The notes under the pieces were generated by a model. It did not search any database. It was not told the origin of the DNA and saw nothing but the letters and a program-made list of their open reading frames with translations. A stretch of 64,000 bases of DNA from Nitrospirota bacterium (GTDB lineage: Bacteria > Nitrospirota > UBA9217), in NCBI GenBank assembly GCA_020052615.1, contig JAGVOT010000128.1:72250-136249 (forward strand). The letters are read 5' to 3'. Positions 3,966 through 63,523 of this stretch are shown piece by piece. Both the position numbers and the translations under genes were made by a program. How positions within the stretch are numbered: the stretch's first letter is position 1; every line of letters begins with the position of its first letter.

Positions 3966-4268
3966 TTAAAGCGTTATGTCTTCAAGCGACCGAAGCTCTA
4001 CGCCTTCTAATATCGTAAGGCGCTTATGCATCATATCCAGCAATACCCTGATTTTATCATCAATCTGCTTTTCAGTAAGAGGGTTCTGTTGAGTGCTGTA
4101 AAGCTCGATCATTCTTTTTTGACAAAATTCGCGCATCTGTTTTGAATCTTCGTTCATCGGGAGGACCTCCTTTTTAAGACGTTTAGTTCCTGAAATAGGA
4201 CTCATTGTAATTATTGGGGCGCTTGCTTCGAGTCCGTCCTTACTCACTAATCTTTGTAGTCTCTTCAA
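3966..4268 (-). CDS. Hypothetical small helical protein. Overlaps the upstream ORF by 29 nt in another frame, so it may be the 3' part of a frameshifted gene.
   Basis: 100-aa ORF. Its 29-nt frame-shifted overlap with 4240..4542 is the only structural clue. Confidence 0.3.
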   Translation of the reverse strand: MKRLQRLVSKDGLEASAPIITMSPISGTKRLKKEVLPMNEDSKQMREFCQKRMIELYSTQQNPLTEKQIDDKIRVLLDMMHKRLTILEGVELRSLEDITL

Positions 4269-4542
4269 TGACCTTAGTGATTTCTCCCTCAGAAATATGA
4301 ACCTCTCTCCTGTTTATGCATATCTGACGGGAGCGGTGATGCTTGAGTTTATCATAAAGCCACGCCGCAACAAGACTAGAAGGAATGCCAGTTGCAACTC
4401 CAATAACGATGGACACGGCGATGTCGGTTCCAAAATCTTTTCTGATGATGATATCTGGCACTGTAAGTGAAATACCTGGAGGAACTTCGTTCTTCAGCAG
4501 AAGCGCATCTTTTTGGTTAGAAAAGGTCATTTCAAAATTCAT
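4240..4542 (-). CDS. Small protein with one predicted transmembrane helix.
   Basis: Hydrophobic stretch IAVSIVIGVATGIPSSLVAAWLY. Lies directly downstream of the cyclase-like gene on the same strand. Confidence 0.4.
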   Translation of the reverse strand: MNFEMTFSNQKDALLLKNEVPPGISLTVPDIIIRKDFGTDIAVSIVIGVATGIPSSLVAAWLYDKLKHHRSRQICINRREVHISEGEITKVIEETTKISE

Positions 4543-4616
4543 GAGGAATATTCTCCATTTTTAGATACAACGCCGCCTAAAGGTACGTGCTTGTTGGTAT
4601 TGTTGATAGATGACAT

Positions 4617-5354
4617 TCATCGCTTTGTGCTCTTGATAAAATTATAGAAGGCGATAGTGTTTCTGATTTTATTTCTGATTTTTCTTTCTTTGCACAAGCC
4701 ATGCGTTTGAGGTTTTTTCAAAAAGCTTTTCTCTATTAAAAAATTCAAATCAATATCCTGTGGGTTTTGGATTGCATGATCAGCCCAATTATACGCATAG
4801 ACCTCCTTCACAGTTCTATTCTTGAAAGGTATGGCGTATCGTGCAATAATTTTGTCTTTTTCGCATCTCAATTTTTCTTCATCACTGATTTTTTCAAAAC
4901 ATACGTCTGAAATCCAGCACCCGATCCAATCTTGTGCTTTTTCTTTTTCGAAAGCTTCTAAAAGTGGTTTTCCGGTAAGCATATCTTCGCAGGCGTAAAA
5001 TTCACCGCATGTGACTGTACCTCTGATTGGTAAGGCAAAGCAAATAGCAGCTTCAAACATACCGCGACAGGCATGCATAATTGTCTGGAAGCCTGTATCG
5101 GAGATTTCGTTTGTATAAATCAAAAAAGTATCAGCATAACTAAGTATTTTTATAATATCCTTTTGTAATGCATAATTCAATTGACTTTCAACATTTGTTG
5201 TAATCATGCGTTTCATATTCTTTTGGTCTATAGCAATTTTTTCAACGGTATTTACTTTGATCCAATCACGATATCCAAGAATATCGAAAAGAGCTATAAA
5301 ACCATACGTCGTATTGATGTCTTTTGGAGTAAGATTTAAGAAATTACAATTCAT
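4617..5354 (-). CDS. Minimal class-III nucleotidyl cyclase-like protein (adenylyl/guanylyl cyclase fold, PycC-like size).
   Basis: Motif spacing matches the class-III cyclase core. FIALFDILGYRDW matches F-x-D-I-x-G-F-T. ADTFLIYT matches the GD-[FY] metal site. IRGTVTCGEFY matches the R-I-G-I-H-x-G loop. GKPLLEAFEKE...IGCWISD matches the G-x-x-V-N-x-A-x-R-L-E ... I-x-V-S region. 245 aa. Confidence 0.5.
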   Translation of the reverse strand: MNCNFLNLTPKDINTTYGFIALFDILGYRDWIKVNTVEKIAIDQKNMKRMITTNVESQLNYALQKDIIKILSYADTFLIYTNEISDTGFQTIMHACRGMFEAAICFALPIRGTVTCGEFYACEDMLTGKPLLEAFEKEKAQDWIGCWISDVCFEKISDEEKLRCEKDKIIARYAIPFKNRTVKEVYAYNWADHAIQNPQDIDLNFLIEKSFLKKPQTHGLCKERKIRNKIRNTIAFYNFIKSTKR

Positions 5355-5434
5355 GGCAAATCCTCAAGAAAAACATGTTAAGGGGGACGTCAATAATACA
5401 TCGTGCCTATCTTATTATTTACTTCTGATACAAT

Positions 5435-5640
5435 GGCGCGAATGAGCGGCTGGTCCCGTAGGGACCGTCCGTTTCGATTCGCTTTGCTGGGCCGCGCTCC
5501 GCGGCACAGCAGAATCGACCGCTCATTCGCGCCACTGGGTCGCCGTCCGCGAAGCGGCGGCCCAGCGCGCGGGTGTTGGGCGCGTTTCGCAGCGACTCAC
5601 ACGCATGTTGGATCCTTGCGTCCAGTTGCGTCGAGTTCCA
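5435..5640. repeat. GC-rich palindromic structured element (REP/BIME-like or structured RNA) inside AT-rich DNA.
   Basis: Perfect 15-bp inverted repeat: GGCGCGAATGAGCGG at 5435–5449 and CCGCTCATTCGCGCC at 5520–5534. Nested palindromes GGTCCCGTAGGGACC and GCCGCGCTCCGCGGC. A further ~100 bp of GC-rich sequence follows to ~5640. It sits between the SEC-C gene stop and the cyclase gene start. Confidence 0.5.
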
Positions 5641-5672
5641 TTTGATCTGCAAAACTATTTGCTCTAATTCAT

Positions 5673-7289
5673 TTATTTGCCCATAGCAGCATATACGGTT
5701 CGCTCGCAAAAAGTAATTGCCAGTTCCTGCTGCTCTAGTTCTTTTAGTCTATCAATGTCGTCGTGATTTTTCATGAAATCTAATAATTTTTCTTTTGTAG
5801 TATCTTTGTAGACTTTAAAAAAAAAGTCAAAAAGCTCTAAGTGTGTTTCTGCTTTCCCCCCTTGCTCTCTGTAAACACCAAAAAACGTATCAGGGTATTT
5901 TTGGTATGCGGCCAACTCATCCTTGGTCAACGGGCAAGTTGCGGTGATGGACCGCCCATCTTCCAGTCTGTAAACACCCAGTGCTTTATCCCATGCGACA
6001 GTTGCTTCAACAAGTTCTCCTACAATGTCCTTTCCGTCATTATCAGGATCAGGAATAAGATATCGTTTTCCAACTATTAATCTTGCCTCTGTTTTACCAA
6101 AAGCCATTTCGGGTGCTTCCCCGTCGAAAGTTGATGGAATCTCCGAATGTTCGCGATTAGATTTAATCAGGTGATACATTTCATAGTGATCTTTTCGAAT
6201 CCTCAGACCTTCTCGGATATCAGACGTTGATAGTCCATAGTTGAACTCCGGAATTTTATAACCTTCAACGAAACCAAATCCTAATATGTTGGTAGCCTCA
6301 AGATTAAATTGATAGGGAAAGTTGGTAAGGAAAACATAGGCTGCAGGCGCGGGATTCCCTTTAATGAGAAGTCTCTCTTCGAGCTCACGAAGATGGGCAG
6401 ATATTTGTCGGACAAAATCTTTTATTTCATCGTTATTAGCCCTTGGAGGGCTATTCAATTCAATAAACACAACTCTTGGATGGTCTGCCCGCTTTTTCAA
6501 TGCACGGTAAAGTTGATCAGCTATATTTAGGGACGGATCGCCACCTTTTCGGGCTTTTGCTTCTACAGAAAATTTATTTCCGGTTTCCTTGTATGTGGCT
6601 GTGAATTCACAATGCGATGTGCTACTATCTGTCTCATCCTCAAGCTCTAAGACGAATCCAGCTTTTATGAATGAAGCGGCGACAAATGTTTCATAATAGG
6701 CACCAAGGAACTGGTCCATATTTTTAAGTCTATGCACGAGGCTTTTTTGCAATTCTACATTGTGAGCGAGTAAGTATAGATTATAAGAAAGTCCGAGATA
6801 GGCGTCGAGCGCACCTGTGGTTGGTGCTGAATGTATTTCTTTTGACGTATTGAAATGCTCTTTTGTGTATCTGCTTACAAGTTCGGCCCATATAAGAATC
6901 GAGTGCCTTTTTTGTGGAGCTTTAGCCACTTCTCCTAGCCACCACTCTTGGCCAAAGCAGGTTTTTATGTAATCGAATAAGAAATCATGGAATGTTTTCC
7001 ACTTTTCCGACCAGCGGAGTTCATTGCCTACTGCAATATATCTTTGACCTTTAAATTTTTCTGAAATAATTGGTCTTCCAAGCCCTTGTTGTTTTTGTCG
7101 TTGAAATTCTAATGCCGCATGTTCAGCAATTTTATTTTGGATTGATTTTTCAAAAGCTAAGTTGCTGGGTATCATTTTTTGTCTTCCTGCCGCATCACCA
7201 TGACATTTTTTAACTTTTTTCCCACTACCACATGGGCAGGGGTCATTCCGTCTCAGTTTTGCCCTTCGGTTTTTTTTACTCATTAGCAA
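5673..7289 (-). CDS. SEC-C motif-containing protein with a large uncharacterised C-terminal region.
   Basis: N-terminus ...RRNDPCPCGSGKKVKKCHG is a SEC-C metal-binding motif. The remaining ~500 aa have no recognisable catalytic motif. Confidence 0.55.
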   Translation of the reverse strand: MLMSKKNRRAKLRRNDPCPCGSGKKVKKCHGDAAGRQKMIPSNLAFEKSIQNKIAEHAALEFQRQKQQGLGRPIISEKFKGQRYIAVGNELRWSEKWKTFHDFLFDYIKTCFGQEWWLGEVAKAPQKRHSILIWAELVSRYTKEHFNTSKEIHSAPTTGALDAYLGLSYNLYLLAHNVELQKSLVHRLKNMDQFLGAYYETFVAASFIKAGFVLELEDETDSSTSHCEFTATYKETGNKFSVEAKARKGGDPSLNIADQLYRALKKRADHPRVVFIELNSPPRANNDEIKDFVRQISAHLRELEERLLIKGNPAPAAYVFLTNFPYQFNLEATNILGFGFVEGYKIPEFNYGLSTSDIREGLRIRKDHYEMYHLIKSNREHSEIPSTFDGEAPEMAFGKTEARLIVGKRYLIPDPDNDGKDIVGELVEATVAWDKALGVYRLEDGRSITATCPLTKDELAAYQKYPDTFFGVYREQGGKAETHLELFDFFFKVYKDTTKEKLLDFMKNHDDIDRLKELEQQELAITFCERTVYAAMGK

Positions 7290-7404
7290 TTAACTTCCTG
7301 ATTTCGCCGCCGTGAGGGGCGCGTTTTTAGCGACCCTCTCGGCGTGGTTGAAATTATTGTGTCGTTTTTTATTCGCGCCTACCGAGCTGTCTATGTTGAG
7401 GTGC

Positions 7405-8061: not shown

Positions 8062-8571
8062 TAAAAACCCCAGTTGTTAACGCGCTGGTGAAACGACGTT
8101 CTCTGAGCGACATTCTTGAAAAGCCAGATCAAAGTGCCGCAAGATATGACGCCATGTTAAGCAACATGCCAACTCCAAGAAGAAGCAGGCCACCTACGAA
8201 ATTACGGAATAGTCAAATTGAAAGGGAGTTGCAGCAATTCGTATAGCAGCAAATCGGAGTGAAATATACAGTATTGCGACAACTGGTAACTACAACAACT
8301 ACAGGAAGGACCATACACTCCATATTTCAGTCAGCATTCTTCAATTCTAGTGGATCTTGGTCCCCGTGGCGAACACCTACAAGAGTGCAGTCAGAAGCTA
8401 GCGATAATTCTGAAAATTACGAGATGAAATCTGGATTGAACACTAGCGTCACTCGCCGCTTTCAGCGAGTCGATGTGCACACGAATGTTAAGGATATCAA
8501 ATTTAAGATCAAATATTATGATTATGGTGTAGCAGGCTGTGTTCCATTTGTGATTTTCGTCCATGACTTCA

Positions 8572-9621
8572 TCATGAAACTCCAAGTCGCTGAAGAATAA
8601 ATCTAGCTATCTCCGCGGGTTGATGCTGTCGTGCATCGATGTACCCGTCAATGGAGAGAAGCCCCTCAATAGGAGCATCGTCAAACCGAACGAACATTAC
8701 TTGGTCATCCAGCTTCGCCTTGATCATGTCTCGGACGGATCGCCACTCAAGGCCACACCATTGTTTGTCGGCATACTCTCCAGAAAGGAATATGACAACA
8801 AGATCAGAGCGATTTCGGTAAATGTCTTGTAGTAAGAAGTCTAGGTTCGGGCGGGATAACTGGGCCTGATAGTCAAAGTCGTAGAAGATCGAGTCGGTTG
8901 GAAGCTTCGGCCTGAGTTCATCCACGACCGATGATACGTGAAGGCGCCTCTCTCCAGGGAATGACATTGCAACGCGAAATCTGAGATGCTTGATGTCTGC
9001 AGTGGACCGATCCACCTTTCCAAACGCTTTATCGCGGAGGAGATGCTCAAGAGCAAGGAGAGAGAGGGAAAAAGGATCTGGCTCGATCCGCGAGGATCGC
9101 TCACGTCCTGGATTCGTAAGAGAAAGACGATACAGAAGGTAGTTGAGCCAAATCGCGAGTGGGTTGTCGTTCGAGCATGCGGTTGGCTTTGAAGATGGTA
9201 CACGTAACTTTTCAGACTTCAAAATATCATCGACAACCTCTAGCCGCAGAGCGTGTGCCTCATTTTTGTCAAAAAGAGAACCGGCTCGTTGCGCCATGCG
9301 AACAAAGAGATCGCACCCCTCTCCTTCAAGGATTCCCATGCACGTCAGGTCCGCGCCGCGGATACCCCACTTCAGGTCGCTCGATTCAATGCTCTTCGCA
9401 AGGCTCATAGCATTATCTTCGCCTTCGATAGCTCCGTAATATTGCCAAAGCATAATTGCATGGTTTGGACTTGCGAAGGCACGATTGAAGCTGACCCCAC
9501 TTTGAGTTACGTAAAACAGCGAGAAGCTCAAGGGGTGGAACTTGGCTGATTCAACCTCAAATGCTTTAATGAGTCTGGCAATTTCGTCTGTCTTATAGGA
9601 AAACGCCACGCTCTCTCCCAT
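8572..9621 (-). CDS. TIR-domain protein with an uncharacterised ~220-aa N-terminal domain.
   Basis: C-terminal region SIFYDFDYQ...RSDLVVIFLSGEYADKQWCGLEWRSVRDMIKAK...VMFVRFDD matches TIR hallmarks (DxFISY-like start, S-x-x-Y-x-x-S-x-WC-x-x-E). Confidence 0.6.
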   Translation of the reverse strand: MGESVAFSYKTDEIARLIKAFEVESAKFHPLSFSLFYVTQSGVSFNRAFASPNHAIMLWQYYGAIEGEDNAMSLAKSIESSDLKWGIRGADLTCMGILEGEGCDLFVRMAQRAGSLFDKNEAHALRLEVVDDILKSEKLRVPSSKPTACSNDNPLAIWLNYLLYRLSLTNPGRERSSRIEPDPFSLSLLALEHLLRDKAFGKVDRSTADIKHLRFRVAMSFPGERRLHVSSVVDELRPKLPTDSIFYDFDYQAQLSRPNLDFLLQDIYRNRSDLVVIFLSGEYADKQWCGLEWRSVRDMIKAKLDDQVMFVRFDDAPIEGLLSIDGYIDARQHQPAEIARFILQRLGVS

Positions 9622-9786
9622 TTTTTACTTAGAAGTCTGACCGCGTGAGTGTACCGTCGTACATTTCAGCGGACGGACACGACCGCTGTTTGGATTTATG
9701 TCTTTTTTGTCGCATTTCAATGGCTGATGCCCTTTTATTCATGATTGTGTCGTTCTATCTATTATCTGTATCTCTCGAAAACGCGC

Positions 9787-10914
9787 TTACTCGTCATTTC
9801 TGTCGTATCTCTGGACGCCGTTGAGCGAGCTATCTTCATCGCAGACTATTCCCACACTGTGTCTCGCTCTGGTGACGGCAACATAGAACTTTGCCTTAAC
9901 AGTTTCAATTTGTGCTAAGTCGCCGCTCTTCAGATATTCCCTTATTTTCTCCGTCGGGTAGATAAGTACCGTCTTGAAAGTCAGCCCTTTGGAGGCCCCG
10001 TAATTGTAATCTGGTGATTTGGCGTTGTTATACCGCAATATTGTGGATTTGAATTTCTCCCGGTAGTGTTCGACGTCCGCCTCTTTGACAAGAAATACTC
10101 CTTGGTGATCGGGAATATCTCTTCTGCACTCCTCGCAGTCACATGGTTCGCATTGCGTATATTCTGGATAGAGCTTTGAGGAAAACTGACAGATTTGCTT
10201 GTTGTTCCTGTGGGATTTGTTCAGCGACTTCGTGTCTATGGGGCAGATGCCTTTCTGACACTTGTCCGATATGAACTTGCTTATTCCTCCACCGCGATAT
10301 TGCTTGTGCTTCGATGAATCATTTGTGGAATAGGTGCCTTGCCTCGGATCGCCTACCATGAGCACGTGTGCAGGAGATTTGAAGAACAGCTTTAGAAGTT
10401 CAAAATCCCATCCGGCTAAGTCCTGCACCTCGTCTATAAAGATATATGGATATATCCTGGTCAACCTATTGATAACCTCATTCCCAACTATCTTGTTGCA
10501 CTCATAAACGAATTTAGAAATCTTGTCCGAATATATCTTGAGATCCCTGGTGAAATAGAACTGGTTGAAACTATTTTCGCCCCAATATATAGGTCTGCCG
10601 CTCTTGTCACAATATCTCAAGCCCGACTTCCCTTCGATCAGATAGAATCCGATCTTCTCGGAAAACAAATCCCCCATGGCTCCCTGGTATGGTCTGACGC
10701 CGTGCTGCAACAAGAAGGAAAACCACGTTTGCACCGTGATGTTGCTAGGGATGCATTTCTTCTTTGCGAGTATTTTGTCTCTTATTTCCTTCTCGTTCGT
10801 TTCCGTGAAAGTGGTGATCAGAACATTAGCATCCTGGACAGTTAAAGCTTCTTCTACCAGAAGAGTCGTCTTGCCCGATCCGGCCGCGGAAATAATGAAG
10901 CTGTTTTCACCCAT
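9787..10914 (-). CDS. gajB: Gabija GajB, UvrD-like superfamily-1 helicase
   Basis: Walker A (ISAAGSGKTT). DEAD-like IFIDEVQDLAGWD. C-terminal KGLTFKTVLIY...YVAVTRAR. Lies immediately downstream of the OLD-family ATPase-TOPRIM gene. Confidence 0.75.
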   Translation of the reverse strand: MGENSFIISAAGSGKTTLLVEEALTVQDANVLITTFTETNEKEIRDKILAKKKCIPSNITVQTWFSFLLQHGVRPYQGAMGDLFSEKIGFYLIEGKSGLRYCDKSGRPIYWGENSFNQFYFTRDLKIYSDKISKFVYECNKIVGNEVINRLTRIYPYIFIDEVQDLAGWDFELLKLFFKSPAHVLMVGDPRQGTYSTNDSSKHKQYRGGGISKFISDKCQKGICPIDTKSLNKSHRNNKQICQFSSKLYPEYTQCEPCDCEECRRDIPDHQGVFLVKEADVEHYREKFKSTILRYNNAKSPDYNYGASKGLTFKTVLIYPTEKIREYLKSGDLAQIETVKAKFYVAVTRARHSVGIVCDEDSSLNGVQRYDRNDE

Positions 10915-10917
10915 AAT

Positions 10918-12606
10918 TTATCCGACGGCGTCAATGATATATTGAGGAAACTTTATGTCGGCATCCGTATCAAAAATTCTTAACGCGCACTCAGTTTTGT
11001 TGGCTTTCATGTATCTGTGCAAGTCGCCTTCGCTCTCATAGCTTGTCCCCAAGATAGCATTGAGCTTGGCCAGGCCGTTAGCTTTTACTAATTTCGGTTC
11101 GAGCGTATTGTAATTGAAAGGTCGCTTGTTTTTGCCAATCGTCAGATCGCCGGTATCTTCAGTCTCATCGCAGTAAATTTTGATGAAATCCTTCTCGTTG
11201 ACTCCCAGATAATTGGCATATTTCTCTTTTAAAGCTTCCACGTCCCCGTCATTGTCCGTGATGACGGTCACCGGTTTTGATATTTTTTCTGCTATTTCCA
11301 AGAAACGCAAAAAGGACGTTCCGACTGAAATGACATCAATCTCGTCCTGTATCGGCAACCTGCCACTGTGGGATAAGAGGTAGGCTTTCTGTATGACCAG
11401 CTCGTCAGAATCGCCCTCAACCAAGATGGCTTTTTTACACAGGATGAGCCGCAAGGTGTCAAAGCCCGCCAGCTTCTCAAAGTAGGCTTTCGTTTCTGGA
11501 TTCAGGTCGTTGAGTCGTGTTTCTTTTCTGAGGCCGGTCTCTTGATCGACGTTCAGCAGAATCAGACTGGCCAGCCCCAGTTTGTTGGCAACAAAGCTGT
11601 TATGTGTCGAGATGATTATCTGCTTTTCATCGTTACTGCCTTGTATATGCCTGATCAGCTGGCTAAGTTTGGTGTGAGACAGGTGATTTTCCGGCTCTTC
11701 TAAAAGCAAGACATTCGCTTGCAGTGACTTTTTGTGGCTCAGTGCCAGTTTCGTCTTTACGATGCATTGTTCGCCCTTGCCAACATGATGAAACGGCACA
11801 TCGTTTAAATATGTCGTCAGTGTACTTTCCCAAGCGTTCTTGGAAGACAAGTCTACTGACAACTCCACCTTCTTATCGGAAATATTTATCGCATCCTTGA
11901 TCAATTCGTTGACTTTCTTGATGGCGGGGTCGTTGTTGAAGGCATCCTTCATCTTTCTATGCGCCTGATCGATCTTTATCTTATTGGCCAAATCCAAATG
12001 GTCCTTAAGGATACGTGAAATATAGATATCGGAGCCGTCTTGGTAACGGTTGCTCGAGGAGTCTATCGGGGCTGACTTGATCGGTATCGAGATGGGCGTC
12101 ACTCTGTCGTCGCGAGCAAAGGATGACCATGTGAAATGATAATATTCCGTGGGTATTGATTGGATATCACCGCTCTTAATCAGTTCTTCATAATACGGCT
12201 GATGTGCTTCATCCAGAGATACCTTGAACTGGACGCCACAGGCTTTCTGCCTGGTTGAATTGCCGTTGCCTTCAAATAGCGCTTTCAAAGAATCGTCTTC
12301 TATGCCCCCGATAAATATTTCGATTAAAATGTGCGGTGGCAGCGGTATTGACCGGGAACAATCAGCCTGCCTGATGTTTTCCAAATATTCGTCCCTGACA
12401 TCATTATTGAAAATATCCTGAGTCATCTGTAACTTGAAATATCTGCCATGCAAGAGGCCGCTCAACGCCAGATGGATAGAGTCTAAGACGGTCGATTTTC
12501 CAGTTTCATTGTCGCCGACAAGAATATTGAGGCCTTTATTCAAAGTTAAAGAAAACTGCCCCTTGAAACATTTCAGATTTTCAATTATAACTTTTTCTAT
12601 GTGCAT
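10918..12606 (-). CDS. gajA: Gabija GajA, OLD-family ABC-ATPase plus TOPRIM endonuclease
   Basis: N-terminus VIIENLKCFKG...LNILVGDNETGKST (AAA_15/21 ATPase). ...LLLEEPENHLS...QIIISTHN (Walker B/D-loop). C-terminal TOPRIM (KKAILVEGDSDELV...VITDNDGD). Confidence 0.8.
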   Translation of the reverse strand: MHIEKVIIENLKCFKGQFSLTLNKGLNILVGDNETGKSTVLDSIHLALSGLLHGRYFKLQMTQDIFNNDVRDEYLENIRQADCSRSIPLPPHILIEIFIGGIEDDSLKALFEGNGNSTRQKACGVQFKVSLDEAHQPYYEELIKSGDIQSIPTEYYHFTWSSFARDDRVTPISIPIKSAPIDSSSNRYQDGSDIYISRILKDHLDLANKIKIDQAHRKMKDAFNNDPAIKKVNELIKDAINISDKKVELSVDLSSKNAWESTLTTYLNDVPFHHVGKGEQCIVKTKLALSHKKSLQANVLLLEEPENHLSHTKLSQLIRHIQGSNDEKQIIISTHNSFVANKLGLASLILLNVDQETGLRKETRLNDLNPETKAYFEKLAGFDTLRLILCKKAILVEGDSDELVIQKAYLLSHSGRLPIQDEIDVISVGTSFLRFLEIAEKISKPVTVITDNDGDVEALKEKYANYLGVNEKDFIKIYCDETEDTGDLTIGKNKRPFNYNTLEPKLVKANGLAKLNAILGTSYESEGDLHRYMKANKTECALRIFDTDADIKFPQYIIDAVG

Positions 12607-12825
12607 AGCCGTCGGTTTTTGGGTCTTTACCAGTTTAGCAAGGATGATATCAATAGAAAATATCTAAGCGTAATCCGCAAGCCAATTTGCTCCTTGTTGA
12701 ATCCAGGTTTCAGGAAGTACTCTCTAACTGAACGACTATATCATAAGATGTAGATTACACACAGTACTTTTCATCGGTCATAACAACAGTGAATTTCTCT
12801 ACTTTCCTTGGTCGAGCCTCTCCTT

Positions 12826-15800
12826 TTATAATGCAAGGATCATAAGTTTGCCATACTTCACCCAGTTGATCCCCACGCCCAGTACCTTCTTCCCCTTCAT
12901 CGCCCCTTCGATGGCTTCTTTATACGCTTCGAGCTGCCGGGCATAGTCCCCGAACTTCATATCGAGGTCGTCGGCTGTGTCGGTCTTGTGGTCGAGTATC
13001 CAGAGGCCTTGAGCCGTTTCCACCACGAGGTCAACAACGCCCGACACGACGCTTCCGTCTTTGTTAAGAGCCAGAATTGGTACCTCTCGCGCGTGTGATA
13101 CAGGCTCGAAGTGCTTTTCAAGGAACTTCCCTAGATCAGCAACGACCCCCTTGATACCCTGATATTCCGTTTCCGTAAACGCATATCCCGTAGCCTTTCC
13201 CAGCGGTTCGATGCCGAGATCCCGCTGCACCAGGACCTCGAAGCATCGGTGCAGGATGTTCCCGCGCTCGATCGGTTCCAGGTCCCCTTCCAGTTCCAAG
13301 CCCTTTCCGTAGGTTTGCGTGATAAGCCCCTTGACCTTCGTCGGCTCTTCGACATGAAGCGACGACGGCGTGATTGCCTCAGGCGTAAGATCAGATGGCA
13401 CTTTACCCGGTTTGATGGCCCGCCGGCCGATAACCGGCAGTTCATTCTTTAAGGCCGTTCCCGCGCCTTCGAAGCAGGAAGGCGGATCATCTGCCACGGT
13501 CATCACGCAGCAAGGGTATTTATTGCCGGCAATATTCAAGGCAGGCCCGTCGATGCAGAGGTCAGCCTCACTCTTCAATAGGTTCCAGTAAACGTTCGTA
13601 CCTGGCTTGTAGTAGTCATGGCATTCGAGTATAAGCTTCTCCCGCGCGCGCGTCAGCATGACATACAAGAGCCGTTTCGCATCCTCTTCGGCGCTCTCCT
13701 GGAGCGAGCTTAGCACTGCATCCGTTTTTTCCTTGAGCGGGAAAACAGGCGATATTTCGATCATCGCCTTTTCCAGGATTCGGCCTATATTGCGAAAATC
13801 CTGATAGGCCACGTCAAAACGCTGGAGCCGCGCTTTTACATCCGCATCAAGCCCGGCGACGACCACGACCGGCCACTCACGCCCCTTGGATGCATGCCAC
13901 GTCACAAGCTGGACAGCCTGCTCGTCCACCACGTTAGGCGCCGGCTGAGCGTCATCATCCTCGGCTGCAGCATTCAGCCATGCAAGAAAGGTCTTGATGC
14001 CGGACCCGTAGAAACGGCCGCTTGCAAGCGCTTCCCGGTTCGCCGCTTCGAACTCCCCGGCCATACCCTGCAGCCGCAGGAGATTGGCTCGCGCCTGCGC
14101 CGCGTCGGGCCACTGAGCAACTTTCCCGTACAGATCAAGAGCATTGATGACATCCCGCACCATGTCCGGGACAGTCATGTCCGAACGACCGTTAATGACC
14201 TTATCGAGCATCGATAGGACCGGACTGGACGGTTCCTTTTTGGAAAGAAGCTCCTTCAGCGCGTCCTCAAGGCCCTTGTCCCCAAGCTCCGTCACCATGA
14301 GATAGAGCGCGGCGTGACGGTCCGAGGGGTCGGCAACATACGAAAGTGCGTAATACATGAGCTGGACGGACCGTGATCCGAACCAACCGTCCTGCTCCAT
14401 GCGGGAACGGATCCCGAGCGTCTGGAGAGTGGAAGAATACTCTCCCAGGCGGTCATGCGTAAAGCACAGGACCGCAATATCGCTCGGCCTGAGTGGCCGG
14501 ACGATGCCCAGGTGCCGGTCATAGACCTTTTCCTTGCCGGACAGCAGCCTGGCTATCCTTGCTGCCGTATGCTGTGCGCGGATTGCCTTGTTCGCCTTCT
14601 TCGTGAATACGATCGCTTCAAGCGGCTCCATGGTGCTCGCATAGGCTGCCTTAGGCGCAAGCTCCGTGTAGTCCTTCTTGAACAGGCCTTTTCCGACCGC
14701 GTTTAGACACTTCATCAGGTCAGGCGTAGACCGCCGGTTCTCCTTGAGCGGTTCGCATGTCTCCGGGTTCTGGCACTGCAGCTCCTCCATCAGGCGGGGA
14801 TCTGCGTCTTGAAATCCCATAATTGCCTGCTTCAGGTCTCCCACGATAAGCGCGGGGACACCCGCCTTGTGCAGGGACCAGAGCAGAGCGAACTGGAGCG
14901 GATTGGTGTCCTGGAATTCGTCGATAACAAGACAGTCGACGCGGTCTTTCAGCATCTTCAGCACCCCGGGCATTGTGAGGACGATATCATGGGCCAAGGC
15001 AAGCATATCAAAGAAGTCGATGAGTCCCTTGTCCCGCTTGTCAGCTGCATACTGGGCCAGGGCGTCCTGGCTACCTCCCAAGAGGGCATCACTATGGTCG
15101 AGCGCGTCCTGGAGAGGTCCGGGGTGGTTCAGAATACCCTCAGCTGCCTCCATAACATCCTCGGCGAGCTCCTTATATCCCTCGGTCAACTTCCCGCTCT
15201 TTCCCGATGTGCGAAGTTTTCTCAGGGAAGTCCAGAGCCGCCAGTCGTAATCAAGAGCGTCGGAAGTGGCGGCTCGCTTCAGGTCGTCGAAATTCTTCCG
15301 CATGTCCTTTTCCGCAGTATCGTTCACCCCGGCAAAGACACTTGACAGGTTGGCGGGATGCTTTTTGAGCAAAGCCTTGACCGCGTCAAGCAGGGCTTTT
15401 TTGAGGTCTTCCGCGTTTCCTGTCGGTCCGTAGAGCTTCTTAATGTGCGCCCGTGCGTGTTCCAGGAGTTTCACATCTTCGGACACCTTGCTAATGGACC
15501 TGAGCTTTCCGATCATCTGCAGGATAGCGTCCCGGAAGAGCTGTTCAGGCGCTTTCCCGATGTGCGAAAGATACTTATATCCGAGGGAGGTCAGCTTTGC
15601 AGTGACCTCATCGGTGCGGTCCGTCCGGTTCAGCGCAAGCCTGATGAGAATGTTCTCTTCATCCTCGCTCAGTTTCCGCAGCTGCGGCGAGATCCCGGCG
15701 TCAAAAGCGAATTCCCTCAGGATGCGAAGTCCAAAACCATGGATCGTCGAGATATACGCCTGATCGAGCCTAAGCGCGTCATCGAGCCTGCCGAGCGACA

Positions 15801-15981
15801 CCAGCTGGCCCCGGATGCGCCCTTTGAGCTCCGCGGCGGCAGCTTCGGTGAAGGTGACTGCAACGATCCTGTCGGGCGCAACATCCCCGTCAACGATCCA
15901 TTGGGCAAGCTTTGTCTGGATCGTATGCGTTTTGCCGGAACCCGCTCCCGCGGGGATGATGGTCAGGCTGGGGATCTTCAT
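12826..15981 (-). CDS. addA: AddA/RecB-type ATP-dependent helicase with C-terminal PD-(D/E)XK nuclease
   Basis: Start chosen at MKIPSLTIIPAGAGSGKTH (GGAGG RBS; ATGA overlap with the upstream gene). UvrD-like motifs. C-terminal GVVDLVVE...ILDHKTD nuclease motif. GC-rich like the housekeeping side. Confidence 0.8.
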   Translation of the reverse strand: MKIPSLTIIPAGAGSGKTHTIQTKLAQWIVDGDVAPDRIVAVTFTEAAAAELKGRIRGQLVSLGRLDDALRLDQAYISTIHGFGLRILREFAFDAGISPQLRKLSEDEENILIRLALNRTDRTDEVTAKLTSLGYKYLSHIGKAPEQLFRDAILQMIGKLRSISKVSEDVKLLEHARAHIKKLYGPTGNAEDLKKALLDAVKALLKKHPANLSSVFAGVNDTAEKDMRKNFDDLKRAATSDALDYDWRLWTSLRKLRTSGKSGKLTEGYKELAEDVMEAAEGILNHPGPLQDALDHSDALLGGSQDALAQYAADKRDKGLIDFFDMLALAHDIVLTMPGVLKMLKDRVDCLVIDEFQDTNPLQFALLWSLHKAGVPALIVGDLKQAIMGFQDADPRLMEELQCQNPETCEPLKENRRSTPDLMKCLNAVGKGLFKKDYTELAPKAAYASTMEPLEAIVFTKKANKAIRAQHTAARIARLLSGKEKVYDRHLGIVRPLRPSDIAVLCFTHDRLGEYSSTLQTLGIRSRMEQDGWFGSRSVQLMYYALSYVADPSDRHAALYLMVTELGDKGLEDALKELLSKKEPSSPVLSMLDKVINGRSDMTVPDMVRDVINALDLYGKVAQWPDAAQARANLLRLQGMAGEFEAANREALASGRFYGSGIKTFLAWLNAAAEDDDAQPAPNVVDEQAVQLVTWHASKGREWPVVVVAGLDADVKARLQRFDVAYQDFRNIGRILEKAMIEISPVFPLKEKTDAVLSSLQESAEEDAKRLLYVMLTRAREKLILECHDYYKPGTNVYWNLLKSEADLCIDGPALNIAGNKYPCCVMTVADDPPSCFEGAGTALKNELPVIGRRAIKPGKVPSDLTPEAITPSSLHVEEPTKVKGLITQTYGKGLELEGDLEPIERGNILHRCFEVLVQRDLGIEPLGKATGYAFTETEYQGIKGVVADLGKFLEKHFEPVSHAREVPILALNKDGSVVSGVVDLVVETAQGLWILDHKTDTADDLDMKFGDYARQLEAYKEAIEGAMKGKKVLGVGINWVKYGKLMILAL

Positions 15982-18740
15982 TCCTCCGCCTCCCCTGCCG
16001 GCTCCGAGGCATGCATGAAGAGCCGAACGAGCGGGCTCGCATCCAACGCGTAGGTTGCAGTGATGCCCGTGTTCTCGGCATACCACTCTTCATCTACATC
16101 CTTGTTCAGAGGCACAAGGCCCTTCCGAAGGTCCCGGAACCGCGTGCTCAACAGGGCCAGGCCCTGGTCTGCGATCTGCCGGCCCATCTCGGTCACGTCC
16201 TGCTGCCCTGTCCCCAGCCAATCCTTGCTGTCGGTCAATACCTTGCGATCGTTCAGCAGGGCATAGAGAACGCCAATTTCGATCTTTTTCGCCAGCGCTT
16301 CGGCGAGCGCCTTGTTCGGGGAGGCCGTGTAGTCGCCGGTCTCGAGCATTTTCCGGTAAAGCGCCACCTGGCTCGCATACCCTTCCTGCATCATGGTCCG
16401 GAACTTGGCGCTTGATGATTTCTTGTAGTCCACGACAAACAGCTGACCGCCGGACACCTGCAGGAGAAGGTCGGTTTTGCCCGTGAGCGCGACGCCGTCA
16501 TACTGGCCGTTCAACTTCGCCTCGGCGCCCAGCATCTTTGCGCCGAACTGGATGAGCCGCTCCCGCCACCATAATGCGGCTTCGAGGATCTCCTGCTCGA
16601 GATGCCTCTTTTCGATAGACCACTCAGGCAGATCGAGGAACGGGGCCACTTCCCGAATGACGATCCCGAACTGTTTCGGCGTTTCCCTCCGTATCACGGC
16701 CGGCTTCGGAATGGCCTTAGTGTCGTTGAAGAAGTACTCCAGCATGCTGTGCGCTATTGTTCCCTTCAGGGCGACGTTAAGCTCCTCAGGTCCCCATTCC
16801 GATGGCACCAGCCCTGCCCTCGCGAGCAGCCATCCAAGAGGCGAGACCATGAGCCATTCAAGCATGCTCGGAGACTCCGGCCTGGGTTTACCCTCGTCGT
16901 CTACGCGAATCGTAGTGAGCAGATCCCGCCCAAGGTTGAGATCGGCAATGACCGTTTTCCACGGCTCACCGGCCGTTGCAGGTTTCGCAAGAGCCAGCCA
17001 GCGCGCCGCAGCCTTTCCCTCTTCCGTATCGAGCTCCAGGAGGAGATTTCCGGCTTCCAGCGCTTCCCTCCCTTTGGGCGGATTGTAGAGCTTGGCCATG
17101 AACGGGAGGGTATCCGAGGGATGGAGCTCATCCCCGACCATATCTCTGCGGGGAATAAGGAACGTTATCCCCTCGGTTGCGGACAAAAGCTGCCGTCTGA
17201 GTAGATTTCGTCGGGACAATACATCGTCAGCGCCGGACTCGACAGCATAACCAAGCTTTTCCTTGAGTAGGGTGAGGTCCGACTCGAAAAATACCGGCGA
17301 TGTTCCCGATCCAGCAGGGTACCTGCCGGATGAGAAGCCGAAAACGATAAGGTACTTCACCTGCCGCGAAGGTTCTTCGTCCTCGGCAAATGCCGCGACG
17401 CCTTCCCGGACAAGGACCTCGTCATCCTTTGTTGGAAATGACGACGGCGAGGAATGGGCAAGAAGCTTTTTCCAGGGGATCTCGCCTGCCTTGGGCAGCA
17501 TCATGGCAAGTTCGAGCAGAAGGTCCTGTGCTCTGCTCTGATGCTCCTCGAGCGCTTCGCTGCCATTCAGCAGGCCTCCAAAATCGCGTAAAGCCTGCGC
17601 CAGCTCGGCAGGCGTTGCCGGGTCCCGCTTCTTGATGAGGTCCGCCATGTTCCTGTCATCAGAGGATGCATCTTTCGGGAGCCAGGGATCGAAACGGCCG
17701 TTCATGACCTCATTGGCGAGGCCAATGCCTGTTTTAGCTTTCCAGGGCATGAGCGGATTGGAATAGAGCGCGGCAAGCGCCATAACGGGTGCAGGCCATC
17801 GACGGGTAAAAAGGAAATTGAGCACTGCTTCACGCCCGAGGTCGCGGACCTTCCGGCTTGAATCGAGCCCGGACACAGGAATGCCTGCAAAGGAAAAGGC
17901 GTCGTGAATAGCGTCGGCGTATGATTTATTAGACGGGACAAGCAGTCCGATCTCTGCCGGCTTCAGTTTCTGCTCTTTCATGATGGTTTGGACCATGCCC
18001 GCGGCGACCTCGGCCTCCTCGAGGCAGTCGCGTACAGCGAGCCACTGGACCGATTCATCAAGTTTCACCGACTCTGCGCCAGGCTTGAACAGGTTGTCCT
18101 GGATCGCGGCGAGGGCCTTGGGACGCTTCTTGGGAGGCGCGGGGGCAAGGGCCTGGCTAAGCAAGCCTTCGAGTTCTTTGTCTTTTGCCGGGGGGAAGTC
18201 CTTCTCGATCTTGTCGATAAGGGCCTTCTGCCAAGGAGAGAGGAGCGGCAGGCCTTCGACACGGTAAAGAACAATAGCCGACAAGACATCATCCTTGCCG
18301 GCATCAAGCACCGATCTGATCGCGGCAAGCCGGATTGGCAGAACACCTCCCATGTCCTCGTGCAGCTTTGCAAGGTCAGCAAGGTGCTTGCGGGCGCGTT
18401 CGGGCAAGACCTTCTTGGTGTCGGGAACTATCTTTCCCGCTGGTCCTACCCCATCGATCAGCATAGTAAGATTCGCCCCTATGCTCGCCAGCGTCTCGTC
18501 AGAAGCGACCTCCATGCTTTTCTCCCAGAAGGCCTCCTTCACGGATGCGGCTGTCTCAGAGAGCTTTTCGTTCCAGATATCTTCTGGATCGGGCAGGAGG
18601 TACGCCTTGAGTGCCTGTTCGATCAACTCTGTCCAGGTCCCGGCGATCACATTGATCCGCGAAGCCTTCTCCGCTATTATGCGTTTGACGAGGCGGGAGG
18701 AGGAGTGGTCGGGAGTGAGAAGGAAATGAATGGTGTTCAT
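15978..18740 (-). CDS. addB: AddB-like PD-(D/E)XK nuclease/inactivated-helicase subunit
   Basis: 920 aa. C-terminal ...GKTDLLLQVSGGQLFVVDYKKSS RecB-type nuclease motif. Translationally coupled to addA. Confidence 0.65.
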   Translation of the reverse strand: MNTIHFLLTPDHSSSRLVKRIIAEKASRINVIAGTWTELIEQALKAYLLPDPEDIWNEKLSETAASVKEAFWEKSMEVASDETLASIGANLTMLIDGVGPAGKIVPDTKKVLPERARKHLADLAKLHEDMGGVLPIRLAAIRSVLDAGKDDVLSAIVLYRVEGLPLLSPWQKALIDKIEKDFPPAKDKELEGLLSQALAPAPPKKRPKALAAIQDNLFKPGAESVKLDESVQWLAVRDCLEEAEVAAGMVQTIMKEQKLKPAEIGLLVPSNKSYADAIHDAFSFAGIPVSGLDSSRKVRDLGREAVLNFLFTRRWPAPVMALAALYSNPLMPWKAKTGIGLANEVMNGRFDPWLPKDASSDDRNMADLIKKRDPATPAELAQALRDFGGLLNGSEALEEHQSRAQDLLLELAMMLPKAGEIPWKKLLAHSSPSSFPTKDDEVLVREGVAAFAEDEEPSRQVKYLIVFGFSSGRYPAGSGTSPVFFESDLTLLKEKLGYAVESGADDVLSRRNLLRRQLLSATEGITFLIPRRDMVGDELHPSDTLPFMAKLYNPPKGREALEAGNLLLELDTEEGKAAARWLALAKPATAGEPWKTVIADLNLGRDLLTTIRVDDEGKPRPESPSMLEWLMVSPLGWLLARAGLVPSEWGPEELNVALKGTIAHSMLEYFFNDTKAIPKPAVIRRETPKQFGIVIREVAPFLDLPEWSIEKRHLEQEILEAALWWRERLIQFGAKMLGAEAKLNGQYDGVALTGKTDLLLQVSGGQLFVVDYKKSSSAKFRTMMQEGYASQVALYRKMLETGDYTASPNKALAEALAKKIEIGVLYALLNDRKVLTDSKDWLGTGQQDVTEMGRQIADQGLALLSTRFRDLRKGLVPLNKDVDEEWYAENTGITATYALDASPLVRLFMHASEPAGEAEE

Positions 18741-18901: not shown

Positions 18902-20104
18902 TTAATACATCCGATACAGCTCTTTCACCAATATTCCAGTGACCATCCTGTCATCGCTCTTTAACGATTCCGCCACTTTCAGCGCCCCTTCCATATGAGG
19001 CGTCGAAACCCCGATCTTTTTCGACATGTACGCCTCGAGGAAGGCCGAGAACTTGTCCGCTACTTCTACCAGTTCACCGTCAACGGGATTGAAGCGATCG
19101 TCGTTGTACTGTTTGCTGATGTCGTCGCTCGAAACGACCTCGATCTTCCCATCCTTCCGCACCTTGCTCGCGAATTCGTTCAGGGTGAAATACTTGAAAT
19201 CACCGAGCCACCCCTCTTCCAGCAGCGGGTAGATCTCTTCCTCGGCAAGCTCCCGCTCGATCTGGCTGATGGCCTCGGGCATACCCTCTACCGAATTCTT
19301 GACCGGCGAGATAATGTCCCGGGTCACGGCTTCGGGCAGATCGTGGAACAAGGCTCCGAAGAAGTTGTTGAAAAGCCGGCGATCGCAAGCTGGAATCTCG
19401 CGCGTTAGAAGGTAGGTTAAGCAGGCGGTCATAAGCATGTGACCCAGAACCGAGGTGCGCGGCAGCCGCGGGATGCCGCCCCATCGGACTTGAAACCGGA
19501 GCTGTCCACAGAGGTCGATGAAATCCGCTACCTTCCCGGCGGTCACGATCTTCCGCATGCCCACGAGGTCCATGTGCTGTTCGAGATCTCTCCTGAGCGC
19601 TTGCTCGATCTTCGGTATCTGGTACCCAAGTGGGTTGGTCTGGCGGATGATCTGAAATTCCCAATAGGTAGCGTAATGGTGTGCCGCAGCGAGGATCTTC
19701 CGCGTGAGAGGATCGAGGGTCTTCTCGTCCTCCAGGTAGTTCTTGAATTCGTCCCGAAGCGTCCCGCCCGCGACCGAATCGATCTCGGGCCCGATCTTCC
19801 CAAAGACCCAGCGGTTCAGTTCGGCGAACTGGTGAGGGTACTTGTCCTTGATCTTGTTATAAACGGGAGACTTGATGTCGGAGAGAACGATCCTGCGAAA
19901 GAGCTCGAACACGCCGCCCTTGATGATGCCGTGCCAGTCAACCTGCCGGCCTTCGCCCTCCTCGTATTTGCCGAGGCAGTAGGCGATGATCATCTTGTGG
20001 CTGTGCTTATCCAGCTCGGTCAGTTCGACGGGCCGGATCTTGTCGTTCCAACGCTGGATGTAGGATGCCTCGAAGAGGCGGAGCGCGAGTGCCTTGCTGA
20101 GCAT
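18902..20104 (-). CDS. HD-domain phosphohydrolase (long form, ~400 aa)
   Basis: SVLGHMLMTACLTYLL...GALFHDLPEAVTRD carries H...HD...D metal-binding motifs. GAGGAGG RBS upstream. Confidence 0.7.
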   Translation of the reverse strand: MLSKALALRLFEASYIQRWNDKIRPVELTELDKHSHKMIIAYCLGKYEEGEGRQVDWHGIIKGGVFELFRRIVLSDIKSPVYNKIKDKYPHQFAELNRWVFGKIGPEIDSVAGGTLRDEFKNYLEDEKTLDPLTRKILAAAHHYATYWEFQIIRQTNPLGYQIPKIEQALRRDLEQHMDLVGMRKIVTAGKVADFIDLCGQLRFQVRWGGIPRLPRTSVLGHMLMTACLTYLLTREIPACDRRLFNNFFGALFHDLPEAVTRDIISPVKNSVEGMPEAISQIERELAEEEIYPLLEEGWLGDFKYFTLNEFASKVRKDGKIEVVSSDDISKQYNDDRFNPVDGELVEVADKFSAFLEAYMSKKIGVSTPHMEGALKVAESLKSDDRMVTGILVKELYRMY

Positions 20105-20785: not shown

Positions 20786-21513
20786 TTACCTGATGGCTTC
20801 CTGACATTCATTTCTGAAACTGCATACCCGGCATTTACCTGGTGTCGGTGTCGCCCTTGGTGACTGACGGAACTGCAATGCCTTTCGCATCTGACCAATG
20901 ATCGACCTCACCGACTGCATAGCCCGTTGCATTTTAGGATTATCCTTGCGGAACGTGAACGACTTGTTCGGATACCGCAGATCAGCCTCCTTCTTACCCA
21001 CCACAAGCATCTGGGCAGCAACATAGAGCACATCTCCATGCCGCGCATTGCCCTTAATAGTCGCGCTCTTATATTCGACGGTCTTTCCCCGCTCAACCAC
21101 ATCAGGCTTGCAGGACAAGCCCAGGTCGTTATTCCGGTAAACCGTGACGCCTCTGCCGTCCAGATCCTGGTCAACGACCCATGACGTGATGCCGATTTTC
21201 CTTCTATCCCTGCGAAGCTTCAAATAGTACAAAGCGCCTATTGTAAAAGCGACAAGAGCCAAAGTAAGCATGCAATACCTCCAATCGTCATGAATTTTGA
21301 TATGACCGACTGCGTCTTCTGGGCCTGTCTTACCGGCCCGGACTTTTGTTGATGGAATTCCTGGCCACGTCTGGAAGGCTGAGTTGAGCATGACTGCTGT
21401 TGCAGCCTCCTCCGGCCTCCTGTTCTCAGGAGATACCATTGTCTGGGGCAGAAATCCCACTGTTTGAGCTCCGATGCGTTGATATTAGGCTTGTTTTTCT
21501 TCGTCATTTTCAT
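20786..21513 (-). pseudogene. Cas4/DUF83-like PD-(D/E)XK nuclease, apparently frameshifted (two overlapping ORFs in different frames).
   Basis: Frame A (21,513→) encodes INASELKQWDFCPRQWYLL, a Cas4-like N-terminal Cys motif. Frame B (→20,786) encodes PDVVERGKTVEYKS...HGDVLYVAAQML and C-terminal GKCRVCSFRNEC (D...ExK plus three Cys). The frames overlap over 21,238–21,460. Confidence 0.45.
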
Positions 21514-61096: not shown

Positions 61097-61317
61097 TAAT
61101 CCAGTCATAGAAAATCTACGGAAAGCATATGTTCTCGCAAAGACGCCAAGCTCGCAAAGAAAGACCAATGTAATGGCAGTTTAGCCAAGTTAAAAGATTT
61201 CCTTTGCGTACTTTGCGGCTTTGCGAGAGACGCCCTTTGACCTTATCCTTTTCGTTCAGCTTTACGCCGTCCAGGTGTATAGTACAGCAGTAGTACAGCA
61301 GTAATATTTCCAGCGAG

Positions 61318-63340: not shown

Positions 63341-63440
63341 TTATCTGAGTTGGATCATTAGGCCTAACCACGCCGTCGAGAGGGTCGCTAAAAACGCGCC
63401 CCTCACGGCGGCGTTGAAGGTGTAGGAAAAGTCATTTTGG

Positions 63441-63470: not shown

Positions 63471-63523
63471 TTGTTGCTATTTAATACTTCTTGACAACTT
63501 TACGGTTTTTACTATACTGCCCT

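Follow-up and report, generated by a model that had tools for sequence, protein, structure and literature searches.

A GC-rich palindromic element in a Nitrospirota defence island is probably an integron-type cassette junction with a compact gene-less module

In a stretch of 64,000 nucleotides from a Nitrospirota bacterium (assembly GCA_020052615.1, contig JAGVOT010000128.1, positions 72,250 to 136,249; hereafter the window, with positions counted from its first letter), a GC-rich palindromic element occupies positions 5434-5613, between the stop of a gene for a SEC-C-motif protein (5673) and the start of a gene for a 245-residue protein (5354), in a neighbourhood where all genes lie on the minus strand. 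Our analysis indicates that this element, which itself reads on the minus strand, is probably an integron-type cassette junction composed of the attC site that closes the SEC-C cassette (5613 to 5566) and, directly behind it, a complete cassette without a gene (5565 to 5434), referred to here as the module. An attC site is an imperfect hairpin of about 57-141 nt that integron integrases recognize as folded single-stranded DNA (the bottom strand); it has inverse core boxes R'' (RYYYAAC) and R' (G|TTRRRY), an unpaired spacer and extrahelical bases on one arm, and its structure is better conserved than its sequence. The module belongs to a family that is present in multiple copies in the cassette arrays of uncultured groundwater and sediment bacteria, and the AT-rich island in which the window copy lies is itself such an array. 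The coordinates of the individual features are collected in Table 1.

An earlier note on this DNA had described the element as an inverted repeat enclosing two smaller palindromes and followed by further GC-rich hairpins, and this description is accurate. The 15-mer GGCGCGAATGAGCGG at 5435-5449 recurs as its exact reverse complement at 5519-5533, with no further exact copy in the window, and the repeat grows to 19 nt at 95% complementarity (5431-5449 and 5519-5537) with a distance of 69 nt between the arms, which ranks it third in length among the local inverted repeats of the window. The inner palindromes are GGTCCCGTAGGGACC (5452-5466, GGTCCC-GTA-GGGACC) and GCCGCGCTCCGCGGC (5491-5505), the second of which sits inside a longer 12-bp hairpin at 5485-5511, and the GC-rich, hairpin-bearing sequence continues over 5538-5613. 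The sharp contrast in composition reported in the same note was also observed, with a GC content of 0.697 for the module, 0.646 for the adjoining attC site and 0.68 for the element overall, compared to 0.354 and 0.424 in the flanking spacers (5355-5433 and 5614-5672) and 0.343 and 0.404 in the flanking genes. The contrast arises because attC-type sites are GC-rich (0.6-0.7) and cassette bodies are AT-rich. The 318-nt intergenic stretch folds with a predicted energy of -134.5 kcal/mol on the minus strand and -139.6 kcal/mol on the plus strand, compared to about -103 and -107 kcal/mol for dinucleotide shuffles (z = -6.1 and -5.9, respectively), and none of 100 shuffles was as stable.

Searches for relatives of the element in reference collections were negative. 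A scan of the window against Rfam 15 at gathering thresholds returned one tRNA only, and a permissive scan of 5300-5750 gave, as its best results, chance matches to miRNA and snoRNA families with E values of at least 0.11, far under the thresholds. By blastn, the element had no relative among plasmids, phages and E. coli genomes, and two scans of viral contigs for the element returned nothing. A scan of a genome collection with the bare 15-mer arm produced 120 single chance matches, none of which extended past ~30 nt, and a second copy of the arm or the element was not found within the window.

Relatives were found in metagenome assemblies. A scan with a pattern made of both window arms (12 + 12 bases, 55-85 apart) retrieved 16 contigs from groundwater and sediment metagenomes, some of them with three exact-arm copies, and a covariance model (R2) together with BLAST revealed six module copies in the single 14.7-kb contig L139 as well as two diverged members of the family at L131:2157-2293 and L133:9065-9199. 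Scored with R2, the window module reached 118.4 bits (E = 5e-19) and was the sole copy in the window; it is 78.5% identical to the family consensus, and its differences in the helices are largely compensatory. Modules of the family are 132-140 nt long and have sharp borders. Each begins with the TT of G|TT, right behind a variable hairpin of ~60 nt, and ends in an invariant CA that is followed by TT and unrelated sequence, and 20 other copies have these borders, G|TT and CA|TT, sharply defined. Over the last 30 nt of the module, mean pairwise identity is 0.93, compared to 0.34 just downstream and 0.44 just upstream, in the preceding attC. In other contigs, the module precedes many unrelated genes. 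Signal-peptide or membrane-like ORFs (open reading frames) accounted for 17 of 25 after a module and for 13 of 22 after a plain attC, and a link of the module to secreted-protein genes was rejected on account of this same bias behind plain attC sites. The copies elsewhere, conserved structure and covariation that the earlier note had proposed looking for were all found in this metagenome family.

These results bear on the possibility that GC-rich coding DNA has left the element behind as a remnant, or that the element is host sequence caught between two insertions. A mild codon-position periodicity in GC content over 5538-5640 (0.82 compared to 0.56-0.66, minus frame, ~34 codons) is what such a remnant might retain, but a six-frame protein search of the element against 5.8 billion clusters gave no match, nor did a Pfam search of its frames. 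The reading frame is not conserved in the alignment of family copies, because indels in the hairpin loops shift it, and copies of the unit, sharply bordered, recur in unrelated surroundings. We regard a coding or trapped-sequence origin as barely credible, and the ORFs through the element are indeed spurious, as had been suspected.

The hairpins that precede the module in the metagenome contigs are canonical integron attC sites, in which an xxYAAC box and an unpaired spacer are combined with a GTTRRRY box and a stem that is bulged and has additional bases in its 5' arm. In an alignment (A1) of 25 of these ~60-nt sites, compensatory changes were present in 11 of 16 pairs and a bulged TC was invariant. 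A covariance model built from these sites (R1), which is specific to this family and is not the general model of IntegronFinder, identified 10 sites in each of L133 and L139, 6 in L131, 4 in L127 and 3 in each of L132 and L128. The sites are co-oriented within each contig and alternate with co-oriented ORFs; many junctions consist of a plain attC, and others of an attC and then a module. The metagenome arrays also obey the cassette rule. Bases that follow the crossover agree with the complement of the R'' box of the next site (47 matches compared to 32 expected, permutation P = 0.00045), and with that of the same site only at the random level.

In the window, the site at 5566-5613 lies where a canonical attC stands directly 5' of the module in every other family copy, and it aligns to those attC sites. 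R1 scored it at 14.3 bits (match span 5560-5613, E = 0.036 within the island). Its last base is the G at 5566, normally the base before the TT of the crossover, and its R' box reads G|CT instead of G|TT because the next two bases are the module's own. At the far end of the module, the invariant CA precedes the TT of the next cassette.

The module consensus reads TTCTCCCGTCGC-TTC-GCGACGCGAGAA-TGGGGCGAATGAGCGG-CCGATTC-TGTTCTCCCGCG-AAACCAG-CGCGGGAGAACA-AA-GCGAATCGAAACGGAC-TTGACCCC-TGC-GGGGTCA-GCCGCTCATTCGCCCCA. On its own, the 3' ~70 nt adopts an attC-type fold of R box, unpaired spacer, bulged L box and terminal hairpin, and R1 aligned 5436-5484 of the window copy to the positions of L'', the variable terminal structure and L' (18.3 bits, E = 0.0025 within the island). 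The R'' box of the consensus module, GGAGAAC, complements the start of the module (its first 6-9 nt) together with the preceding G, GTTCTCC, which is the usual relation in a cassette, and this complementarity is kept in four variants, namely GTTCTCCC/GGGAGAAC, GTTCTGCC/GGCAGAAC, GATAGGCC/GGCCTATC in L131 and, in the window, GCTGGGCC (5566 to 5559) with GGCCCAGC (5493 to 5486). The remaining ~60 nt of the module is an inverted copy of its own attC arms minus the bulges and the terminal hairpin, and therefore the whole module folds as one long branched hairpin, the minimum-energy form of which consists of hairpin C, a long stem of 18 bp, P2, hairpin B and hairpin A. Conservation of this fold is evident from covariation. 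In a MAFFT alignment, 96% of cells pair, and 13 pairs have changed on both sides, compared to 3.8 ± 1.2 in shuffles; with the two diverged members added in a model-fitted alignment, the number was 26 of 53 pairs, compared to 5.9 ± 1.6 in shuffles and 1-10 in slid controls. Both-side changes affected 8 of the 17 pairs of helix 3, the long stem, and 5 of the 7 pairs of helix 6, hairpin A, while hairpin C occurs in at least seven sequence variants across the family, all of which pair. The attC-like alternative fold is also compatible with the alignment, and in the copy at L139:2589-2727 a coordinated triple change preserves both pairings of the L' arm.

Given this anatomy, we infer that an integron integrase acting at the R' crossover would carry out both excision and insertion of the module, and that the module would multiply within arrays as a minimal, probably selfish, cassette; integrase action at this crossover would account for both the fixed G|TT start and the fixed CA|TT end. 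Several observations weigh against the cassette-junction reading. The metagenome copies carry an ascertainment bias, having been retrieved with a pattern from the window's own arms, and the attC seeds were chosen with a regular expression requiring AAC...GTT, so that these invariants are partly there by construction, although the attC sites adjoining modules show AAC...GTT independently of the seed pattern. No pair of loci with the same downstream cassette, with and without the module, was found. The bases after the module matched R'' of the next cassette at 1.7 of 4 positions, compared to a random level of ~1.45 (n = 7), which is not significant alone. An integron integrase was not found in the window or in the fetched contigs, where tblastn with an approximate IntI1 query gave a weak match in L126 only. 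With DNA parameters, the long hairpin greatly exceeds the attC fold in stability (about -57 to -61 compared to about -20 kcal/mol), so the dominant fold hides the attC, and its long stem is a perfect duplex without the extrahelical bases of an attC. The R' box of the module begins with A in all copies instead of the near-invariant G, and the window module has AGC/GCT where the canonical core is AAC/GTT. Given the stable, bulge-free long stem, integrase activity on the module is only putative.

The competing folds raise the possibility that the module is a functional structured element selected for its fold and is not only selfish, a view compatible with integrase mobility. It could act in cassette transcripts, where it might be a processing site of the RNase III type, stabilise the mRNA or serve as an insulator, or it could be a DNA switch that masks the attC to control excision. 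The helices are compensated even where the AAC/GTT core has been lost, as in the window and the L131 variant, and the triple change described above keeps both pairings of the L' arm. Pairs of G·U on the sense strand outnumber C·A cells by roughly 5 to 1, though with so few G·U pairs this ratio carries little weight. There is also precedent in Vibrio, where gene-less cassettes often serve as promoters for downstream cassettes (PMC11014356). However, no sigma-70-like promoter or intrinsic terminator was predicted in the element, the window copy and the consensus share no conserved -35/-10 pair, and neither an Rfam match nor a link to the type of downstream gene was found. In addition, hairpin-templated repair or gene conversion can match the arms of a palindrome without selection. 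We therefore consider a selected, functional fold to be possible and rather unlikely. The same doubt applies to its most specific form, a 'self-masked attC' of a previously undescribed kind, in which the perfect antisense copy of the module's own recombination arms toggles the site between an integrase-competent attC fold and a much stabler, inert hairpin. Only tentatively can it be proposed that selection has kept both folds, which would make the module a regulator or punctuation mark of the cassette array and not mere selfish DNA. A self-masked attC could control when neighbouring cassettes are excised, or could be processed in the array transcript.

The fixed position of the module, always in one orientation and at one position of the attC, might also be explained by a non-autonomous attC-targeting insertion element moved by a transposase, for example a derivative of the IS1111-attC type. 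IS1111-attC insertion sequences target attC sites. Group IIC-attC introns (PMC3001079) are another known case with an orientation-specific location at attC sites. The borders of the module, however, coincide exactly with the integrase crossover, the module carries its own attC-like half with a start that complements its own R'', and no terminal inverted repeats, target duplication or related transposase gene was present in any contig. Nor was a parent element found. Hallmarks of an intron or insertion sequence, a protein and an Rfam group II match are likewise lacking, and the one insertion sequence (IS)-like insertion seen in a module, at L139:7830-8760, interrupts the module and is not part of it. 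We judge an attC-targeting element to be improbable. The miniature inverted-repeat element proposed in the earlier note was rejected, as the repeat of 18-19 bp is internal, with its left arm ~30 nt inside the unit, the flanks carry no target-site duplication and the borders are G|TT and CA|TT.

The earlier note had also drawn attention to a gene resembling a REP-associated tyrosine transposase (RAYT) at the end of the window and had suggested a cluster of repetitive extragenic palindromes (REP) or bacterial interspersed mosaic elements (BIME); such a cluster could have been spread by this transposase. The RAYT-like ORF is present and runs off the window end, and the element shares with REP/BIME sequences that it is GC-rich, palindromic, extragenic and repeated. 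The unit, however, is a 132-nt composite, about five times the length of a REP of 20-40 nt, and it has one copy in 64 kb. Its related copies all lie at attC crossovers in cassette arrays and are not scattered extragenically, no similarity was found between the element and the sequence around the RAYT-like gene, and that gene, which comes after the attC at 63362-63419, itself has the look of a cassette. Spread by the RAYT-like transposase is thus highly improbable. As for the third suggestion, a structured RNA in the 5' untranslated region of the cyclase-like gene, homologues of that gene lack the element, the module precedes unrelated genes elsewhere and no Rfam family was matched. The broader view of the earlier note, that this is a repeated, mobile, extragenic palindromic element and not coding debris, has stood, whereas none of its three specific readings has.

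Homologues without the element were found for the 245-residue protein gene (L121-L123) and for the SEC-C gene (L126), and DNA homology ends at 5366 for the former (L121) and at 5655 for the latter (L126). The element is therefore a separate unit and not part of the system of either gene, and a role as conserved partner RNA of the SEC-C or the cyclase-like gene was rejected. The same observations bear on a retron-like msr/msd RNA or other defence RNA serving the neighbours. The long closing stem that encloses hairpins and the location in a defence island would suit such an RNA, but, as the earlier note had remarked in discounting a retron, no reverse transcriptase domain is present among the scanned neighbour genes of the island, their homologues lack the element, and the element stands before many unrelated genes in other contigs. 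We give this alternative almost no credence.

With these alternatives weighed, the cassette-junction reading can be placed in the setting of the island. The low-GC stretch at ~2.85-12.6 kb is a cassette array, because sites identified by R1 and a relic after GajB sit behind its genes. All R1 sites of the island are on the minus strand; four stand behind minus-strand genes and another falls within the module. Significant sites number at least three in the interval 2.85-8.5 kb, to which relics are to be added. The array runs in the order Gabija, TIR, 218-aa gene, SEC-C, gene-less module, 245-aa gene, two 100-aa ORFs and 279-aa gene. The well-preserved site after the TIR gene has the core pair CCTTAAC/GTTCAAT, and the decayed site after the 218-aa gene is nearly identical to the intact attC at the window end. 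No IntI-like ORF was found in the 64-kb window, the sole integrase of which is P4-like. A CALIN, or attC-site cluster without integron integrases, has been defined as at least two attC sites without a nearby integron integrase (Cury et al. 2016, PMC4889954), and the array is therefore a CALIN by the published definition. Taken together with the metagenome arrays, it resembles known examples in its imperfect hairpins of ~60 nt, whose boxes read ..YAAC (R'') and GTTRRRY (R') and one arm of which carries additional bases, in the co-oriented sites alternating with mostly single co-oriented ORFs, in the post-crossover bases that belong to the next cassette and in the absence of a nearby integrase. 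The window array differs in that several of its sites are decayed (GCT, GTC or a lost R') and were identified by a family-specific model. Since several sites lack GTT and the module core is AGC/GCT, the array looks old and is probably immobile now, as is, probably, the local copy of the module.

Table 1. Features of the element, the cassette array and its surroundings in the window (R1, covariance model of attC sites)
Feature	Position	Strand	Details
Decayed attC closing the SEC-C cassette	5566-5613	minus	R'' ATCCAAC at 5613 to 5607
Gene-less (ORF-less) module cassette, 132 nt	5434-5565	minus	CTGGGCC... to ...GCGCCA
Hairpin C, CTGGGCCGCCGC-TTC-GCGGACGGCGACCCAG	5535-5565	minus	5' arm is the cassette start
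Long-stem 5' arm	5519-5534	minus	Inverted copy of the attC L'-R' arm; right-hand 15-mer of the earlier note
Hairpin B	5485-5511	minus	3' arm holds the R'' equivalent of the module, GGCCCAGC (5493 to 5486)
L''-like arm of the module's own attC, GCGAAT-C-GAA-A-CGG	5469-5482	minus	
Hairpin A, GGTCCC-TAC-GGGACC	5452-5466	minus	Variable terminal structure of the module attC
Long-stem 3' arm (L' arm and spacer of the module attC)	5434-5449	minus	Ends in the invariant CA
TTGTATC, start of the 245-aa gene cassette	5427-5433	minus	7-mer again at 4564-4570
SEC-C-motif protein gene, 536 aa from ATG	5673-7283	minus	Cassette upstream of the element
245-aa protein gene, class III nucleotidyl-cyclase fold	4617-5354	minus	Cassette downstream of the element
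Possible truncated attC behind the 245-aa gene	4571-4599	minus	R1 9.6 bits, E 0.8-5, not significant alone
attC after the 279-aa gene, last of the array	2853-2904	minus	R' is GTC; R1 31.2 bits, E 2.5e-6
Decayed attC after the 218-aa gene	7301-7353	minus	R' lost; R1 19.6 bits, E 0.006
Well-preserved attC after the TIR-domain gene	8435-8493	minus	R1 39.6 bits, E 9e-9 (whole window)
TIR-domain protein gene	8572-9621	minus	
Relic attC after GajB	9640-9695	minus	Unscored by R1; full-length alignment to the attC at L128:10516-10576
Gabija pair, complete	9787-12606	minus	PADLOC GajA 680 bits, GajB 445 bits
NERD-helicase	938-2620	plus	PADLOC RTasNERD-Hel, 203 bits
1086-aa ORF (GSGKT Walker-A-like motif) and 920-aa PD-(D/E)XK nuclease-domain protein	12826-18740	minus	
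HD-domain protein	18902-20104	minus	
P4-like integrase with Arm DNA-binding domain	21485-22696	minus	
Intact attC near the window end	63362-63419	plus	R1 52.8 bits; GCCTAAC/GTTGAAG

The AT-rich defence island with its Gabija, TIR, SEC-C and cyclase-fold proteins is thus reclassified as an integrase-less integron-type array. Anti-phage defence systems are known to occur as integron cassettes (bioRxiv 10.1101/2024.07.02.601686 and 10.1101/2024.07.02.601719), and the window agrees with these reports in that the Gabija pair, the TIR gene and other candidate defence genes are each followed by an attC-type site, which for the Gabija pair and the TIR gene is an attC or an attC relic. It differs from them as an integrase-less, partly decayed, chromosomal array in a non-Vibrio host of ~55% GC. 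The finding fits the recent view that anti-phage genes are stockpiled in integrons, and it widens that view to include an uncultured lineage outside Vibrio; the uncharacterised neighbours in the island become candidate single-gene defence cassettes.

The attC/CALIN part of this reading belongs to ordinary biology. Within the known class of non-coding cassettes, the self-complementary micro-cassette appears to be new. Highly paralogous families of non-coding cassettes have been described in Vibrio arrays (Boucher et al. 2006, PMC1382264). Like those gene-less cassettes (PMC1382264; Blanco et al. 2024, PMC11014356), the module has no ORF, is highly conserved, multi-copy and confined to related hosts, and for both, selfish and regulatory readings have been proposed. 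The module is, however, much smaller (132-140 nt, about the size of an attC), has an R' that begins with A, carries no promoter-like sequence and occurs in another host lineage with GC-rich sites. Its cargo, moreover, is the inverted copy of its own attC arms, which forms a perfect long hairpin in competition with the attC fold. Documented here is a family of compact gene-less cassettes that contain only their own recombination site and a mask covering it. Should this mask govern recombination or the processing of transcripts, it would represent a new regulatory layer in integrons and a natural example for the design of structure-specific recombination sites; if the module is only selfish, it would be a very small parasite of the integron system.

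Some copies in the metagenome contigs depart from the usual arrangement. The IS-like insertion in L139, a 291-aa ORF between inverted GGACCTGACCCTATAAG repeats, cuts a module copy of which the 3' 56 nt is left at 8767-8822. In three copies (L132:1300-1356, L129:60-116 and L140:2427-2500), the module stands behind a different upstream element (...CTAGTAAAG...GGGGGCTAGTCAATACCTTG|TT) that is not of the usual attC type, and these copies keep the G|TT junction. Two cassettes of L139, at 6235-6530 and 12545-12830, open after G|TTGAG with ~300 nt of similar non-coding sequence (...CTGTAGAAAAACCCCTGAAAGGGC...), and this pair may represent a second paralogous non-coding cassette or a leader family in the array.

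The protein encoded directly downstream of the element had been called cyclase-like, and its predicted structure agrees. The 245-aa sequence had no match in Pfam, NCBIfam, PADLOC or the PDB, and the model (pLDDT 92) was assigned by Foldseek to the class III adenylyl/guanylyl-cyclase fold (E = 4e-7, TM ~0.5-0.65). In the family alignment, D24, D75 and the RG pair R111 and G112 are invariant. Judging from this model, the protein may be a nucleotide cyclase, small and stand-alone, that belongs to a defence cassette. A similar FLDVLGFS motif opens the cassette at L139:11035-11871. Two overlapping 100-aa ORFs (3966-4542, minus strand) lie immediately downstream of the cyclase-fold gene and might be partners of its protein. 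The first of them has a hydrophobic segment, and in the interval that separates the pair from the 279-aa gene no attC was detected. The heptamer TTGTATC is found on both sides of the 245-aa cassette, after the CA of the module and after the G of the cassette's own truncated attC. Such a repeat would not be anticipated at ordinary cassette junctions, with a chance of ~1 in 1000 given the fixed TT, and it could be the mark of a secondary-site insertion.

Other likely defence or mobility genes lie in the flanks of the array, which have host-like GC content (Table 1, NERD-helicase to P4-like integrase). Near the window end, an ORF at 62651-63340 with a match to the BA5345 family is followed by the intact plus-strand attC and then by the RAYT-like ORF (63500-64000, plus strand). 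The latter has HUH and Tyr motifs and matches the NCBIfam model REP_Tyr_transpos at 58.6 bits, under the cut-off of 80, and the gene appears to sit in a second, plus-strand cassette position. An intergenic inverted repeat of 30 nt at 61133-61228 (TCTCGCAAAGACGCCAAGCTCGCAAAG..., 83% complementary with a 36-nt spacer) is unrelated to the element.

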